A program made the position numbers and the translations under genes. A stretch of DNA of 64,000 nucleotides from an uncultured Candidatus Saccharibacteria bacterium. Lineage in GTDB: Bacteria; Patescibacteriota; WWE3; 2-01-FULL-39-13. Of the stretch, positions 37,195 to 43,267 are shown in pieces (position 1 is the first letter of the stretch; the number at the start of each line of letters is the position of its first letter). Where the stretch lies: assembly GCA_964370865.1 (NCBI GenBank), contig CAYJKF010000001.1:35703-99702 (forward strand), written 5' to 3'. The notes beneath the pieces are model-generated. The model saw only the letters and a program-made list of their open reading frames with translations. It was not told the origin of the DNA and did not search any database.

Positions 37195-39048
37195 TTATTC
37201 TAGCACAGCCTTTATTCTTCTAACTCCTTTTGCAACAGCTTCTTCTTTTAAAATTTTAAAGTGACCAAGTTCTGAAGTATTTCCTACATGTGGTCCACCG
37301 CAAAATTCTTTTGACCATGCCGATTCGATTGTTTCTCCAACATAATAAACGTTTACCATGTCTGCATATTTTTCACTAAAAAAATGAATTGCACCAGTCG
37401 CCTCGGCTTCTTTTATTGGAAGAACAACTTTATTCATTGGAAGTTTTTCTGAAATTTTTTGATTTACGAGTTGTTCGACTAACGCAATTTGTTCCACGGT
37501 CATCTTTTCATTATGCGAAAAATCAAAACGCAATCTTTCTGGCGTAATATTACTTCCCATTTGTCCAACATGTGTTCCTAATATTTCTCTAAGTGCGCTG
37601 TGTAATAAATGGGTAGCTGTATGAAGTTTTGTTGTTTCATAGGAATGGTCACCAAGCCCTCCTTTAAATCTATCACCCATATTTGCACGAGATTTTTCTT
37701 GATGCTCTTCGAGTTGTTTTTCGAAATCAGTAAAATCTACTTCTAAATTTAATTCTTTAGCGAGATTTTCAATTAAATCTTTTGAAGCGCCTTGTGATTG
37801 GTAAATATCAAATGGATTGTCGATTTTAGATAAAGCTTTGTTTACATATGTATGTGTTATAAAATTTCTTGTTCGATTAAATACTTCTTTATATAAATTA
37901 ACTTCATCGTTTATAACTTTAAAAATATGCGCCGTGTTATCAAGTTCTGGATAGATGTGTTTGTTTTTTTCAATAACCATTAATGCTATCTGATCAATTT
38001 GATCTGGGTTTATATATAGGTTCCACAGGCATTCATCAAATATCCTTCTTATAAGTCTTCTTAATACATATCCTTGATCTTTGTTTGATGGATATAAATT
38101 TTCAGCAATCAAAAAAGTTACAGTTCTAATATGGTCAGCGACCCTTTGAACTCCTGTTTTAATAGTTGTTTGCTCAATTGTAGTTGGATTTACTAAAGCG
38201 TCTTGAATTTTTTCGGATTCAGAACTTAAAGCAATTATTTTATTTATTATTTCGGAAAAAACATCTGTTTCATAAACAGAATCCACGTGCTGAATAAGTG
38301 TTGTCATTCGCTCAAGGCCTGAACCGGTATCAACAGATAAAGCAGGAAGTGGAGTTAGTTTTCCATCTTCTCCACGATTAAATTGCATAAAAACTCCTGC
38401 ATTCCAAATTTCTAAGTATCTTGGATTATCAGTTAGTCCTGGTCGATCTTCTTTTGGACCAAATTCTTCTCCTCTATCATATAAAACTTCAGTGCAGGGA
38501 CCACATGGACCAACGGGACCTGGAGCCCACCAATTTTCACTCCCTGGCAATTTTGAAATGTGAGATTCAGGTACTCCAACTGATTTCCATGCCTCAATGG
38601 TTTCAGTATCTTCGGGGCATTCTTCGTTTCCTTCAAAAACAGTCGGACGGAATTTTGTAGCATCAAATCCGAATCCGTATTCTTTGTTTGTTAACAAATC
38701 AAATGCAAACTGAATGGCTTCTTTTTTGCCATAATCTCCAATTGACCAGTTACCAAGCATTTCGAAAAATGTAAGGTGATATTTACTTGTTCCAACAATA
38801 TCTAAATCTCCAGTTCTAATACATTTCTGTGAGCTACAAAGTCTCTTCGAACCAAAATCTTTCTCGGCATCCCTCTCACCTAAAAAATAAGGCGTAAATT
38901 GAACCATTCCAGAATTTGTAAAAAGCAATGTTGGATGATTTTCGGGAATAAGTTTACTCGATGAAACCTCAATATGAGGATATCCACGTTCAGCCAAAAC
39001 CTTAACAAAATAATCAATAAATCTCTTACGGATTTCAGTAGATGTCAT
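37195..39048 (-). CDS. alaS: Alanine--tRNA ligase (short form lacking the C-terminal domain)
   Basis: An N-terminus MTSTEIRKRFIDYFVKVLAERGYPHIEVSSSKLIP...LLFTNSGM, the class II core, and an editing-domain HxxxH motif (TATHLLHSALR). The longer ORF in the track, ending at 39210, overlaps the conserved repeat, so M55 is the more likely start. Confidence 0.8.
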   Translation of the reverse strand: MTSTEIRKRFIDYFVKVLAERGYPHIEVSSSKLIPENHPTLLFTNSGMVQFTPYFLGERDAEKDFGSKRLCSSQKCIRTGDLDIVGTSKYHLTFFEMLGNWSIGDYGKKEAIQFAFDLLTNKEYGFGFDATKFRPTVFEGNEECPEDTETIEAWKSVGVPESHISKLPGSENWWAPGPVGPCGPCTEVLYDRGEEFGPKEDRPGLTDNPRYLEIWNAGVFMQFNRGEDGKLTPLPALSVDTGSGLERMTTLIQHVDSVYETDVFSEIINKIIALSSESEKIQDALVNPTTIEQTTIKTGVQRVADHIRTVTFLIAENLYPSNKDQGYVLRRLIRRIFDECLWNLYINPDQIDQIALMVIEKNKHIYPELDNTAHIFKVINDEVNLYKEVFNRTRNFITHTYVNKALSKIDNPFDIYQSQGASKDLIENLAKELNLEVDFTDFEKQLEEHQEKSRANMGDRFKGGLGDHSYETTKLHTATHLLHSALREILGTHVGQMGSNITPERLRFDFSHNEKMTVEQIALVEQLVNQKISEKLPMNKVVLPIKEAEATGAIHFFSEKYADMVNVYYVGETIESAWSKEFCGGPHVGNTSELGHFKILKEEAVAKGVRRIKAVLE

Positions 39049-39082
39049 GAAGGTATTATATAGGATTTTGTCTTTGGAAAAA

Positions 39083-39207
39083 GGGTACTGCGGCTGATAG
39101 GGTGAAAGAAAAAGTTTTGTATTCAAAAGAATACATGTTTTGGTCGAAATGACCGAAACAGATCTATGAAGATCAACTTTTCTCTCAACCCTATCAGCTT
39201 TTTTTAT
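39083..39207 (+). ncRNA. Structured repeat element copy 1 (candidate small RNA). It has a long closing stem, two internal perfect hairpins and a T7 run.
   Basis: The outer stem is gctgatagggtgaaagaaaaagtt / aacttttctctcaaccctatcagc. Inside are the hairpins gtattc-aaaa-gaatac and ggtc-gaaat-gacc. The element ends in TTTTTTT. A -10-like TATTATAT lies about 25 nt upstream. A second copy, about 90% identical, is at 40312-40437. The strand assignment is tentative. Confidence 0.4.
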
Positions 39208-39310
39208 CAAATGAATTCATTTTATTTTTCTTAGCACGATTGCCAAGAATTTTTTTACTATTTTAATGCGGTAAAGCTATGTAAACAACTCCTCGCGGAA
39301 TTGTTAAAAA

Positions 39311-39345
39311 GAAGCAGAACCCGGGACGGGGGTTCTTTTCTTTGT
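39311..39345. terminator. Bidirectional intrinsic terminator hairpin (agaaccc-ggga-c-gggggttct, flanked by an A-run and a T-run) after gene 39348-39875
   Basis: Read directly from the sequence. Confidence 0.6.
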
Positions 39346-39347
39346 GT

Positions 39348-39875
39348 TCATCGCTTTACCGCGAGGACGACATGGAGTCCTCCATTGCTGGAGCTCCCGG
39401 CAACCCAAAGTTTAGCACGAGGCTGTTCGGTACTTGGATCAAGCCAAGTATAAGTTTGCCCTGGCCAAACAATCCATCCATCTACAAAGACTTCCGAGAC
39501 AACTGTGCCTTCCTTCCCGTAGGGAGGAGTCATCCGGATGAATAACTCATCCTTCATGATTCCATAACCTATGAGGTCGGCTTCTATGTTGTACTGATCG
39601 AGGACGGGGAAGCCCTTGTCGATTGGAAACAACTCTGGCATACGGCCAGGTAATGCTGGAAGATTTTGGATAACATACATGTTGACTGGGCTATACCCAA
39701 CTTGGAGTATCTCCCAATTCTCGTCCGCCGTAGGAAGCGCTGTCAGTGTCGATACTTCAGTTGGCATCTCCATAGAAGTCGATGGAAGTGCTTCCCCGAC
39801 TCTTTCGGATACTTTGCATACCAAAAAAGATATCAACAGTCCAACACACACCAAAAATCCCAGTAGCTTACTCAT
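39348..39875 (-). CDS. Secreted hypothetical protein (cassette copy 1; moderately GC-enriched)
   Basis: A signal peptide (MSKLLGFLVCVGLLISFLVC). The C-terminal segment EVFVDGWIVWPGQT resembles EVFLNGIPVEPGIT in the gene at 40579-41811. An AGGAGG ribosome-binding site lies upstream. Confidence 0.55.
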   Translation of the reverse strand: MSKLLGFLVCVGLLISFLVCKVSERVGEALPSTSMEMPTEVSTLTALPTADENWEILQVGYSPVNMYVIQNLPALPGRMPELFPIDKGFPVLDQYNIEADLIGYGIMKDELFIRMTPPYGKEGTVVSEVFVDGWIVWPGQTYTWLDPSTEQPRAKLWVAGSSSNGGLHVVLAVKR

Positions 39876-39944
39876 CTAGTACCTCCTAGGTACTTAAACA
39901 CCAGTGGATTATTAAGGTGCATCGCGATAAATTGCGATTTGATT

Positions 39945-40006
39945 CTCTTTCCCCAAAAGCTGGATTCCTCGCACCACGAGAGGTTTCCTTGGGCGTCCCG
40001 AAAGAG
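39945..40006 (-). promoter_or_regulatory. Conserved multi-stem 5' leader element (copy 1) in the long leader of gene 39348-39875
   Basis: On the sense strand the stems are P1 cucuuuc/gaaagag, P1b cccaa/uuggg and the hairpin cucg-uggu-cgag. The same three helices are preserved in copy 2 (41888-41955) despite loop and linker differences. Confidence 0.4.
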
Positions 40007-40184
40007 CAAACAACCAGATAATGACTTATGTCGCTGTCTAGTTGCTTACTTATTCAAGACTAAAAGAAAAATATCCCTAAGAATTCATTTTATTATTAAT
40101 GTACTCGAAACATCGTTAGCAAAGCCTATTTGCACCGTGTTGTCGAAAGATGTTCAGCTTGAAATGTTTTAAGCAGAACGCCTA

Positions 40185-40219
40185 ATTATATCGCAAATTA
40201 GCACAAACTCAACCTATAG
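40185..40219 (-). promoter_or_regulatory. Cassette promoter, copy 1 (ctataggTTGAGT-N16-TATAAT)
   Basis: The reverse complement reads ctataggTTGAGTttgtgctaatttgcgaTATAAT. Confidence 0.5.
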
Positions 40220-40311
40220 TAATCTAGCCAGGCTCGATTACTTGGTCAAAATTTTCTTCAATTTTTGCTGATGTCAGGATGATGTTATATAGATTTTTAT
40301 ATTGTGAGAAA

Positions 40312-40437
40312 GGGTACTGCGGCTGATAGGGTGAAAGAAAAAGTTTTGTATTCAAAAGAATACAATGTTTTGGTCGAAATGACCGAAACAGATCTTAAAT
40401 GATCAACTTTCCTCTCAGCCCTATCAGCTTTCTTTGA
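40312..40437 (+). ncRNA. Structured repeat element copy 2 (candidate small RNA)
   Basis: It has the same stem/hairpin architecture as copy 1. It is preceded by an extended -10-like TGtTATATA. Confidence 0.4.
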
Positions 40438-40578
40438 ATCAAATGAATTAATTTATTTTTCTTAGCACGATTGCCAAGAAATTTTTCTTTCTACAGCAAC
40501 TGCTATATGAACAATTCCTCACGGAACTGTTAGAAAGAAGCAGAACCCGGGACGGGGGCTCGACTTCTCTTCTCATCT

Positions 40579-41811
40579 CTACCTTGCGGTAGGGACGAGG
40601 GGTGATTCAGCGGTGCCCGCAAGGCTTGTTTGCCCTGGGCAAAGTGACAGCTGGAAAGCTCTCCCGACGATGAGGACATCTCCTCGAACTATGTCGTCAT
40701 AGCGAACTTTTAGGACCCAATTGTCTCCCCACCTCGTGATACCTGGTTCAACCGGAATGCCGTTCAAGAACACCTCTTGAATGAAGAATACATTCTCCTG
40801 GTTGAACTGAACAATATGGACCTGAATGAGATCTCCACCATTAGTGAGGTCAAATAGGCCCTCGCCATGCAAAGACCACTCTGGTCCTTCTACTTCTTCC
40901 TGCCAGGAAGTCTCAACTGCAGACGTCGTGATGACGCTGACGTAGGGATCTCCCGAACCACGGACGAGGTAACATTTCTCGCCATCATCAGGCTCCGGAG
41001 TTGATGTTGCCTCGACGTTGGGCATTGGTGTTGGAATTTCCGTAGGTTGTTCTGTGGGAACTTCCGTTGGTTGTTCTGTAGGAACTTCCGTTGGTTGTTC
41101 TGTGGGAACTTCCGTTGGTTGTTCTGTAGGAACTTCCGTTGGCTGTTCTGTAGGAACTTCCGTTGGCTGTTCTGTGGGAACTTTCGTTGGTTGTTCTGTA
41201 GGAACTTCCGTTGGCTGTTCTGTGGGAACTACCGTTGGCTCGTCTGTTGGGACTGCCGTTGGTTCGTCTGTTGGGACTACCGTTGGCTCGTCTGTCGGGA
41301 CTGCTGTTGGCTCGTCTGTTGGGACTGCCGTTGGTTCGTCCGTCGGGACTGCCGTTGGTTCGTCCGTCGGGACTGCCGTTGGCTCGTCTGTTGGGACTAC
41401 CGTTGGCTCGTCTGTTGGGACTACCGTTGGCTCGTCGTCTGTTGGGACTGCCGTTGGTTCGTCTGTTGGGACTTCTGTACACTCTGGTGTGGGAACTTGA
41501 GTAGGAACCTCTGTCGGCTTCGGGGTTTTTGTGGGTTTATCACCACCACACCAACCTTCGTTACCATCGGCTCTATCTTCATCGTTACCACATCCATTAT
41601 TATCGTGTGGCTTTCCCTCCCCAGGATCAGGTGTGCCTTGATCTCGATCTGGCCCATGACCATCATTGTCTGGCTCGTTGAAACCTCGGGTCGGCTCCGG
41701 CAAAGGAGAATCCTTCGATCCATTTGCACTCACCACACGAGGAAGCATTATCATTGTGCCAAGCAAGGCCACAATAATAATTACACTGAATACCGCAAAC
41801 AACTTGCGCAT
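40579..41811 (-). CDS. Secreted protein with a long (PTDEPTAV)n/(PTEQPTEV)n Pro/Thr-rich tandem-repeat region (cassette copy 2; GC-rich)
   Basis: A signal peptide, an acidic Gly/Asp-rich N-terminal region, about 20 eight-residue repeats and a C-terminal globular part. It has the same flanking leader and 3' repeat elements as copy 1. Confidence 0.65.
   Translation of the reverse strand: MRKLFAVFSVIIIVALLGTMIMLPRVVSANGSKDSPLPEPTRGFNEPDNDGHGPDRDQGTPDPGEGKPHDNNGCGNDEDRADGNEGWCGGDKPTKTPKPTEVPTQVPTPECTEVPTDEPTAVPTDDEPTVVPTDEPTVVPTDEPTAVPTDEPTAVPTDEPTAVPTDEPTAVPTDEPTVVPTDEPTAVPTDEPTVVPTEQPTEVPTEQPTKVPTEQPTEVPTEQPTEVPTEQPTEVPTEQPTEVPTEQPTEVPTEQPTEIPTPMPNVEATSTPEPDDGEKCYLVRGSGDPYVSVITTSAVETSWQEEVEGPEWSLHGEGLFDLTNGGDLIQVHIVQFNQENVFFIQEVFLNGIPVEPGITRWGDNWVLKVRYDDIVRGDVLIVGRAFQLSLCPGQTSLAGTAESPLVPTAR
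41018..41500. repeat. 24-bp coding tandem-repeat array (about 20 units, two subfamilies) inside gene 40579-41811
   Basis: Units such as ggaacttccgttggttgttctgtg and ggactgccgttggttcgtctgtt repeat head to tail. They translate on the minus strand to VPTEQPTE and VPTDEPTA. Confidence 0.85.
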
Positions 41812-41887
41812 GGGAATTTTCCCTCCTTTGCGCTAAAAACTTGACCTAACGTTACCAATAGTGCATCGCTTTCGCGATTCTGATTCC

Positions 41888-41955
41888 TCTTTCCCCCCAA
41901 AAAACTGGATCCTCGCACTACGAGAGAGATCACTTGGGTTTGTCCCGAAAGAGAG
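41888..41955 (-). promoter_or_regulatory. Conserved multi-stem 5' leader element (copy 2)
   Basis: See copy 1. Confidence 0.4.
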
Positions 41956-42168
41956 AGCGATAAGATAACGATCGTTATCTTTACCTTATTGCTCAATCCT
42001 TAGGAAATATAGAAAGAAAAATATCCCTTTAAAATATTAAATTCATTTGATTGTTAAGGTACGTCATTTGAAGGGATTATTATAAGCGAAGCATCTTCGC
42101 TCGTATTTCTTCAAATCGAGTTCAGACACATGTTATATAGAATATATAGCAGGGTAAGAACAAGGCCT

Positions 42169-42203
42169 ATTATACTACATTTTTAGTATAAATCAACCTA
42201 TAG
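42169..42203 (-). promoter_or_regulatory. Cassette promoter, copy 2 (ctataggTTGATT-N16-TATAAT)
   Basis: The reverse complement reads ctataggTTGATTtatactaaaaatgtagTATAAT. Confidence 0.5.
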
Positions 42204-42211
42204 TACGTTGG

Positions 42212-43267
42212 CTAGAGCCTTAAGACAATCTCAAACTCCTCCTCAATATGCTCTGCTGACGTAACAATAGTCTGATATTTTTTCATTACGCTGGTTATAT
42301 TCTCCCTAAAATTGTCATCTAGCTCACTGAAAATATCGTCGAGTAAAAGAGTGGGAACTACTTTTGTCTCCTTTTCGATATATTGGAGCTCAAGGATTTT
42401 GAGGGCGAGGGCAGCAGTTCGCTGCTGCCCCCTAGAACCATAACTCTGAAGATCTAAATTCCTACTATCCTTAGCTATAATAAAATCAAAATCATCCCGA
42501 TGAGGTCCAACAGAAGTAGAGCCTTTGGATAAATCCCTACCTCGGCTCGCCTCTAAGGAACTTGGCGTAATAAGCACCGGCTTATAATCCAACTGCAATA
42601 AATATTCATTCCCAAACAATTCACCAGACACCTTATCTAAATTTTCCTTAGCAAATTCAAAAAACATCTTTCTAGACTGTTGTACATACATTCCTGCATC
42701 GGTTAATTGCTTATCCCAAACTTCTAATTGGTTCTCAAATATATTATGAATAACTTGTCCTTCAGCCATATCCAAAAGTTTGTTTCTATGTTTAAGTAGT
42801 CGTTCATACCTGTGAATGGTTCGATAATATTCTGACGAAACCTGTGAAAGTAAACCATCCACATAATCTCTGCGCCTAGAAGGCGAACCAATTACAAGCC
42901 TAATATCTTCGGGGTTAAATAAGACCGCTTTAAAAATACCAACAAAATCTTTTGACTTCTTTACGACTCCATTCTTTTTGAAAGTCTTTTTAACACGTCC
43001 CATTCCCGATCTTTCCTCTATAAACTCAAGCTTAGTATTATCTTCAAAAACCCCAACAGTTCTACAAAAGTTGGAATCAATATTAATCATCTCCTTTTCA
43101 GTAACCGCACGAAATGATCTTCCTTTACTTAAAACGCTAATTGCCTCAAGAATATTCGTCTTTCCTGAACCGTTCGAGCCTGATATCAAAGTAGTAGTAC
43201 TAGAAAGACTAACTTCTTTTTTAAGATGATTTCTAAAATTTTGTAACTCAATCGTTCGAATTTTCAT
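42212..43267 (-). CDS. recF: DNA replication and repair protein RecF
   Basis: An N-terminal Walker A (ISGSNGSGKTNILEAI) with the SMC-like RecF architecture. Confidence 0.85.
   Translation of the reverse strand: MKIRTIELQNFRNHLKKEVSLSSTTTLISGSNGSGKTNILEAISVLSKGRSFRAVTEKEMINIDSNFCRTVGVFEDNTKLEFIEERSGMGRVKKTFKKNGVVKKSKDFVGIFKAVLFNPEDIRLVIGSPSRRRDYVDGLLSQVSSEYYRTIHRYERLLKHRNKLLDMAEGQVIHNIFENQLEVWDKQLTDAGMYVQQSRKMFFEFAKENLDKVSGELFGNEYLLQLDYKPVLITPSSLEASRGRDLSKGSTSVGPHRDDFDFIIAKDSRNLDLQSYGSRGQQRTAALALKILELQYIEKETKVVPTLLLDDIFSELDDNFRENITSVMKKYQTIVTSAEHIEEEFEIVLRL

Follow-up and report, generated by a model that had tools for sequence, protein, structure and literature searches.

A conserved structured RNA element in the 5′ leaders of two tandem secreted-protein genes between recF and alaS in a Patescibacteria clade

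Genes and signals between recF and alaS

The window, that is, the whole stretch of DNA that was analyzed, is 64,000 nt long and comes from a genome with a GC content of about 35%. The AlaS of this species is at most 46% identical to that of any GTDB species representative, and its best matches in GTDB are mostly from Patescibacteria (Saccharibacteria, Peribacteria, and Uhrbacteria). The locus described here is flanked by housekeeping genes: RNase J, UDG, and recF (42212-43267) are located on one side, and alaS (37195-39048), DUF456, FtsA/PilM-like, and ruvX genes on the other. Between recF and alaS, there are two minus-strand genes, B (40579..41811) and A (39348..39875), which we refer to as cassette genes. 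Gene A encodes a protein of 175 amino acid residues with an N-terminal hydrophobic signal or anchor. No Pfam family was assigned to this protein, and no homologue was found outside its own species among 5.8 billion protein clusters. Gene B encodes a 410-residue secreted protein in which a signal peptide and an N-terminal motif containing Cys are followed by a long PT repeat encoded by 24-nt units and by a C-terminal domain without known relatives. Direct comparison showed that proteins A and B are unrelated to each other. When the repeat of protein B was left out, a search returned only the N-terminal Cys motif, in four proteins (P0123-P0126).

This motif, DxDGHGPDR...NNGCGNDEDRxDxNEGWCG, occupies residues of about 45-90 of protein B (about 41540-41680, minus strand). 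It is common to protein B and the four matching secreted proteins, which come from other metagenomes and are otherwise unrelated, and it does not belong to a Pfam family; one of the four appears, as read from its sequence, to carry a C-terminal LPxTG-like sorting signal. The repeat of gene B (40957-41484) consists of about 20 tandem 24-nt units encoding PT(D/E)(E/Q)PT(A/V/E)V, and the length of protein B in different samples of the same species was 353, 362, 370, 378, 410, and 418 residues, which makes this a variable-number repeat of a surface protein. The GC content of the two cassette genes is 47-59%, as compared with 32-36% in the flanking genome. The amino acid composition accounts for only part of this difference, and a foreign origin or a special codon usage is possible.

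A relative of the window species with 74% RecF identity was represented by a Logan contig (L092), which was reached via RecF homologues. The gene order in this contig is recF, a 375-nt gap, a gene for a PT-rich secreted protein of 161 residues, and alaS. The protein has in common with protein B only a CxND..WC motif and PT-rich sequence. Comparison of the window with L092, L093, L094, and L105 indicated that the recF-alaS gap is a variable spot in the clade. It contains two cassettes in the window, one cassette in L092, two MazE/PIN pairs and a gene for 291 residues in L093, and a PIN gene with a small upstream partner, a gene for 326 residues, and a glycosyltransferase gene in L094, and it is empty in L105.

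Promoter-like sites were found on the minus strand upstream of both cassette genes. The site of cassette A, TTGAGT-16-TATAAT, is located at 40185..40212, with a predicted transcript start at about 40178, and that of cassette B, TTGATT-16-TATAAT, is located at 42169..42196, directly after the stop codon of recF. From these best promoter-like sites, leaders of about 300 nt (A) and about 350 nt (B) are predicted, in line with the long leaders of about 300 nt described in the original prediction. The block ACTATAGGTTGA, just upstream of promoter A, recurs in copy B and is present as ACTATAGGATTA in L092. Another block, ACTATAGG(T/A)T(G/T)A, overlaps the -35 region (40207-40219, 42191-42203, and 1436-1448 of L092) and is kept in all three leaders though the remaining promoter region diverges. 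It could function as a promoter element or bind a regulator.

A unit of about 300 nt is found 3′ of each cassette gene (39032-39335 and 40261-40561), and its two copies are 86-97% identical. It contains an intrinsic terminator (AGAACCCCCGTCCCGGGTTCT followed by a T-run), a promoter-like TTGGCA-16-TAAAAT, and the leader stem of alaS. Since the similarity extends to the start codon of alaS, cassette A seems to have arisen by an insertion or duplication in which the upstream region of alaS was copied, and the copied alaS promoter may also drive transcription of gene A. The 5′ leader of alaS (39093-39198, minus strand) is predicted to fold into a long stem of exceptional stability, with two or three hairpins at its top, and has a folding energy of -50.6 kcal/mol (z = -9.5). 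The second copy, which lies together with the promoter-like site upstream of cassette A (40322-40430), has a z-score of -8.1, and the alaS leader of L092 (2331-2421), in which the stem sequence is changed, has a z-score of -7.6. The stem has no Rfam match and was not called as a tRNA; it may be an alaS autoregulatory leader.

Structure and conservation of the leader element

The leaders of both cassette genes contain the same predicted RNA fold on the minus strand, and only these two copies are present in the window. The core of copy A (40006..39945) reads CUCUUUC-GGGACG-CCCAA-GGAAACCU-CUCG-UGGUG-CGAG-GAAUCCAGCUU-UUGGG-GAAAGAG. The original prediction had placed P1, P1b, and a small hairpin (P2) in both copies, and its coordinates and strand were right. 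P1 (CUCUUUC/GAAAGAG) is formed by 40006-40000 with 39951-39945, and P1b (CCCAA/UUGGG) by 39993-39989 with 39956-39952; the conserved bulge GGGACG (39999-39994) lies between them. P2 is formed by 39980-39977 with 39971-39968 or, alternatively, by 39983-39980 with 39970-39967. The core of copy B (41887..41953) has the same P1 (41953-41947 with 41893-41887), whose 5′ strand is followed by the bulge GGGACAAA, the same P1b (41938-41934 with 41900-41896), and P2 at 41924-41921 with 41915-41912. The linkers and loops of the two copies differ as had been listed, and all paired positions of the three helices are the same. The loop of P2 has 5 nt (UGGUG in A and UAGUG in B), not the 4 nt given originally. 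A shift of P2 by two bases, to CCUC/GAGG with a 9-nt loop, fits equally well. The register of P2 is ambiguous, as both versions covary because the sequence CUCUCU/GAGAGA is repetitive. The wider loop would be sterically better for the pseudoknot described below.

The three-helix model was incomplete, as it missed P0, P3, Pa, and a loop-to-tail pseudoknot. With P0, P3, and the pseudoknot, the element covers about 125 nt of the minus strand (40039..39916 in A and 41981..41859 in B). P0, located 8-9 nt upstream of P1, is AGACAGCGAC-AUAA-GUCAUUAUCU in leader A (40016..40039; 8 of 10 pairs) and a perfect 8-bp hairpin, AAGAUAAC-GAUC-GUUAUCUU, in leader B (41962..41981). In L092, P0 has 8 of 9 pairs and another inner sequence, and the inner pairs differ in all three copies. 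P3 begins 6-8 nt after P1 in each of the three copies, and it is AUCGC-AAUUUAUC-GCGAU in copy A (39921..39938) and AUCGC-GAAA-GCGAU in copy B (41878-41865). Pa is located about 100 nt upstream, and it is GCAAA-UAGGC-UUUGC in leader A (40119..40133), GCGAAG-AUG-CUUCGC in leader B (42086..42100), and GGCAGA/UUUGUC at the equivalent position in L092. The distance from the predicted transcript start is about 45-60 nt to Pa and about 170 nt (A) to about 210 nt (B) to the core.

The loop of P2 is complementary to the 4-6 nt right after P3, and this pairing would form a pseudoknot enclosing P3. The strands are GGUGC (39975-39971) and GCACC (39916..39920) in copy A, UAGUGC (41920-41915) and GCACUA (41864-41859) in copy B, and GGUA and UACC in L092. 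Although only 4-6 bp long and spotted by eye, post hoc, the pseudoknot covaries twice, independently: a G-to-A change in the loop of copy B is matched by a C-to-U change in the tail, and another loop G-to-A change in L092 is matched by a C-to-U change at the other end.

The homologue of the element in L092 lies at 1684-1774, within the gap after recF. R1, a covariance model for which only copy A was used, scored L092 at 1678-1774 with 56 bits and copy B with 43 bits, and there was no other match in the 1.4 Mb of loci examined. A further homologue that varies in sequence yet keeps the pairings thus exists, and the original prediction withstands the refutation test that was stated with it. As copy B and the P1 strand of L092 were placed wrongly by MAFFT, the alignment for pair counting was produced with a covariance model for which copy A was the only seed. 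In this three-sequence alignment, which the covariance model fitted to the structure, 98.7% of cells were paired. Six pairs changed on both sides in the originally drawn register of P2 (1 of 500 shuffles was as good) and seven in the alternative register (0 of 500), in a comparative set of three distinct sequences from two lineages, with A and B being paralogues, which has no power for an R-scape-type test. When the partners were moved by 1-3 columns as a control, pairing was 38-64%.

The compensatory changes in L092, 6-7 in number, are from C-G to U-A. P1b changed from CCCAA/UUGGG to UCCAA/UUGGA, P2 from CUCG/CGAG to UUUG/CAGA, and P3 from AUCGC/GCGAU to AUCGU/ACGAU. The lone lost pair is the outermost one of P1. 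Between copy A and L092, 13 of the 51 paired positions differ, corresponding to six pairing-preserving double changes and one broken terminal pair. The probability of rescuing six of seven changed pairs by luck is 7e-5 to 1e-3 if each changed pair has a 15-25% chance of rescue. Copies A and B alone cannot show covariation because the three originally proposed helices have no paired-base difference between them. The differences between A and B were distributed unevenly, with 3 of 52 paired columns and 19 of 45 unpaired columns affected (Fisher p = 2e-5), and the indels in the alignment of A, B, and L092 were all in unpaired columns. U-G wobble pairs are present on the sense (minus) strand. The earlier proposal of a conserved structured RNA element in these leaders is borne out by the L092 homologue and its compensatory changes.

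Folding energy did not distinguish a single-copy fold from shuffled sequence: the core had z-scores of +0.1 and +0.9, and the extended element had z-scores of -1.1 to -1.8. The unpaired bases of the core were not more conserved than the paired ones: A and L092 differ at 14 of 46 unpaired and 13 of 51 paired positions. The conserved unpaired bases are (C)GG(G)AC, CCAAG, and GAAyCCrG. The leader is alignable throughout, and the core is best kept, with an identity of about 70-82% versus about 50-60% elsewhere. The identity of the element between the window and L092 is about 80%, compared with 74% for RecF. Since the core is conserved to this degree while the proteins of L092 and cassette B share only a motif and PT-rich sequence, the leader RNA is more constrained than the encoded proteins. 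The comparative results indicate that the fold is a real, selectively maintained RNA structure.

Distribution of the element and its relation to translation signals

Strain variants of the source species (L001-L005 and L101) carry elements identical to those described above. The number of distinct sequences thus stays at three, which is the chief weakness of the case. The contigs of sister species with 92-93% RecF identity (L095, L100, and L102) end before the leader. In relatives with 58-61% RecF identity (L093, L094, and L105), the motif was not found within 10 kb. Models R1 and R2 gave nothing better than E = 0.3 on these three together with 80 GTDB alaS loci, which are mostly from Patescibacteria and have a best AlaS identity of 46%. 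Patterns fitting all three copies had no match in GTDB genomes (596 Gb), JGI metagenomes, or IMG/VR. Six matches to a loose pattern in IMG/VR were rejected as chance matches, since none of them scored with the covariance models. Upstream of three of the four Cys-motif genes (all but P0126), the gaps were short, and the RNA motif was not found.

At gathering thresholds, the 4227 covariance models of Rfam 15 gave no match in the whole window, and when 38900-42400 was searched at E values up to 10, neither copy of the element was overlapped by a match. No tRNA-like gene was called by ARAGORN, plasmid and phage sequences contained no blastn match, and a string search of the literature with the core sequence returned only unrelated primer matches. 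A search for coding potential found no shared reading frame in the element, and its indels are not multiples of three. We regard the element as a new family of structured leader RNA in bacteria, which is very small so far.

Each of the three copies is found 3′ of a promoter-like site, with 35-52 nt between its end and the downstream start codon, and this position makes a cis-regulatory role plausible. No terminator was found on the sense strand between the element and the AUG. The hairpin AGUACC-UAGGA-GGUACU over the AGGAGG ribosome-binding site (RBS; 39887-39882), which had been noted in the original prediction, is present in copy A (39878..39894, minus strand); it is specific to A and occurs neither in B nor in L092. 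In the latter two, the last bases of the RBS pair with UCC(C) immediately before the AUG. The RBS is partly within a small local hairpin in all three genes, and these hairpins are built differently. An RNA thermometer, one of the functions proposed originally, is disfavored by the fact that the element does not contain the RBS and ends 35-52 nt upstream of the AUG, with RBS hairpins that are not conserved.

When the three leaders were folded without constraints, the tail after P3 paired in each with a downstream segment instead of the P2 loop, so the pseudoknot and the downstream hairpin are mutually exclusive. The alternative pairings are GCACC with GGUGU (39902-39898) in A, CUA..GC with UAGGU in B, and CCUUU with AAAGG, the RBS, in L092; these downstream partners are not homologous among the three copies. 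When the loop and tail were blocked to mimic the pseudoknot, the predicted accessibility of the RBS changed from 0.24 to 0.45 in L092 only. This modeling of RBS accessibility as an expression platform revealed no effect in A or B and no consistent effect among A, B, and L092. A conserved link of the element to a terminator or RBS was not found in the three copies.

Candidate roles of the leader element

Our working model, to which we give somewhat less than an even chance, is that the element is a cis-acting leader module that would be recognized by a trans factor and would govern non-homologous surface-protein genes post-transcriptionally. The RNA fold in the 5′ leaders of the two tandem secreted-protein genes would act in cis on the mRNA. 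Its predicted layout consists of P0, the long irregular hairpin P1-P1b-P2 with the asymmetric bulge (C)GG(G)AC, P3, and the pseudoknot. Because a conserved three-dimensional shape, made up of the bulge and pseudoknot, would serve two different genes, recognition by a common trans-acting factor is suggested. A protein is likelier than a metabolite as the factor that would bind the fold. Unrelated surface-protein genes would thereby come under one control of translation initiation and/or mRNA lifetime, and competition between the pseudoknot and the downstream hairpin for the tail sequence could provide a switch. We infer the transcription from the predicted promoters, the action in cis, the factor, and the switch.

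A serious rival, which we nevertheless consider rather improbable, is a constitutive leader that stabilizes the mRNA or enhances its translation, with stacked hairpins protecting abundant surface-protein mRNAs from 5′-end-dependent RNases or providing a ribosome standby site, and with no sensing or switching. The stabilizers of ompA and aprE act as 5′-terminal stem-loops, and we know of no covarying pseudoknot in leaders of the slpA/ompA type. In Lactobacillus, the long half-lives of transcripts of slpA and other S-layer genes come from long structured 5′ leaders (review PMC3666127). The cassette leaders resemble those of slpA and ompA in that a long leader with multiple stem-loops follows a strong promoter-like site and precedes a signal-peptide gene, and an effect at the mRNA level would be expected. 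Such a purely protective role is consistent with the downstream genes, which encode secreted proteins with PT-rich linkers behind near-consensus promoter-like sites, and with the lack of a conserved expression platform in the three leaders; the RNase J gene in the region would make 5′-end-dependent decay plausible. On the other hand, the core that is conserved here lies inside the leader, starting about 170 nt (A) or 210 nt (B) past the predicted transcript start, and is common to two unrelated genes, with no sequence or Rfam relationship to slpA- or ompA-type leaders. A generic protective hairpin would need neither a covarying pseudoknot nor a conserved asymmetric bulge. A rather different proposal, in which the RNA itself has no function and the similarity reflects duplicated or converted cassette flanks (homology arms of a recF-alaS hot spot) or a DNA-level site, with the pairings being incidental, seems very unlikely to us. 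Neither drift nor conservation at the DNA level predicts 6-7 double compensatory changes with a single broken pair, the concentration of A/B substitutions and the confinement of all indels in unpaired columns (p = 2e-5) point the same way, P1 arms about 49 nt apart are unlike a protein operator, and no integrase or recombinase gene is present within 10 kb on either side of the element. This stands against the repetition of both cassette flanks (76% identity in the leader and 86-97% in the 3′ region), the variability of the recF-alaS gap among relatives (toxin-antitoxin genes in L093 and L094, empty in L105), and the unexceptional folding energy, all of which fit this proposal. An integron attC site or gene cassette was also considered and rejected, as the element is 5′ of genes behind their own promoter-like sites and no integrase is encoded within this distance.

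A small-molecule riboswitch was another of the functions proposed originally, and the analysis gave it no positive support. The bulge, internal loops, and pseudoknot would then form the aptamer for a metabolite or ion, and ligand binding would stabilize the pseudoknot and alter translation initiation. The multi-helix pseudoknotted fold with conserved unpaired bases, its 5′-leader position, and the alternative partner of the tail fit this proposal, and the lack of an Rfam match would make it a new class. We regard it as unlikely, since the element is confined to one narrow Patescibacteria clade with no match in GTDB, the JGI metagenomes, or IMG/VR, intrinsic terminators and consistent sequestration of the RBS are absent, the downstream genes encode unrelated orphan secreted proteins that suggest no ligand, and the unpaired positions are not better conserved than the paired ones. 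With ZTP/pfl riboswitches, the element shares its layout, in which a first subdomain is followed by a separate hairpin and by a tail that returns to pair with the first subdomain, as well as the 5′-leader location. The preQ1 classes are likewise pseudoknot-forming riboswitch aptamers (see PMC11625349). The conserved bases differ from those of ZTP/pfl and preQ1, no Rfam riboswitch matched at E values up to 10, and, unlike pseudoknot riboswitches, the element has no expression platform that we could find, occurs in a single narrow clade, and precedes genes without metabolic meaning. A trans-acting small RNA of about 250-300 nt, separate or processed from the leader, with readthrough into the coding sequence being secondary, would explain why the promoter block and the leader blocks (Pa, GUACAUUAACAA, P0, and the core) are conserved and the coding sequences are not, and it would be compatible with two tandem copies. 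We consider it slightly less probable still than the riboswitch, as a sense-strand terminator is absent between the element and the start codon, and the RBS and gene follow within 35-52 nt of the element in all three cases.

Protein-bound pseudoknotted leaders are known from the autoregulation of E. coli rpsO by S15, of the alpha operon by S4, and of T4 gene 32. In these leaders, the regulator is the product of the gene, and the pseudoknot covers or directly adjoins the RBS or start codon. As in them, the cassette leaders have a hairpin loop that pairs with a downstream strand, a shape that a protein could read. Unlike in them, the pseudoknot ends 35-52 nt before the AUG, and the downstream products are signal-peptide secreted proteins without an RNA-binding family. 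Autoregulation by the gene product is unlikely because the two downstream proteins are unrelated.

Patescibacteria (CPR) are uncultured bacteria with small genomes and few recognizable regulators, and to our knowledge, very little is known about their gene regulation. In a more speculative version, which we would hold only as an outside chance, the element would belong to an undescribed class of ligand-responsive RNA, with an aptamer or catalytic core, in a deep-branching Patescibacteria clade, and a ligand-stabilized pseudoknot would switch on surface or secreted proteins. If true, fast-evolving surface and secreted proteins would be switched on by a host-derived or environmental signal. The element, a compact RNA of about 125 nt for which a pseudoknot is predicted, is a testable target, the value of which is limited by the small number of representatives. 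With regard to the working model of a leader module recognized by a trans factor, the combination of a conserved leader with fast-diverging surface-protein genes points to post-transcriptional control of the cell-surface repertoire, which is probably central to the episymbiotic lifestyle of Patescibacteria.
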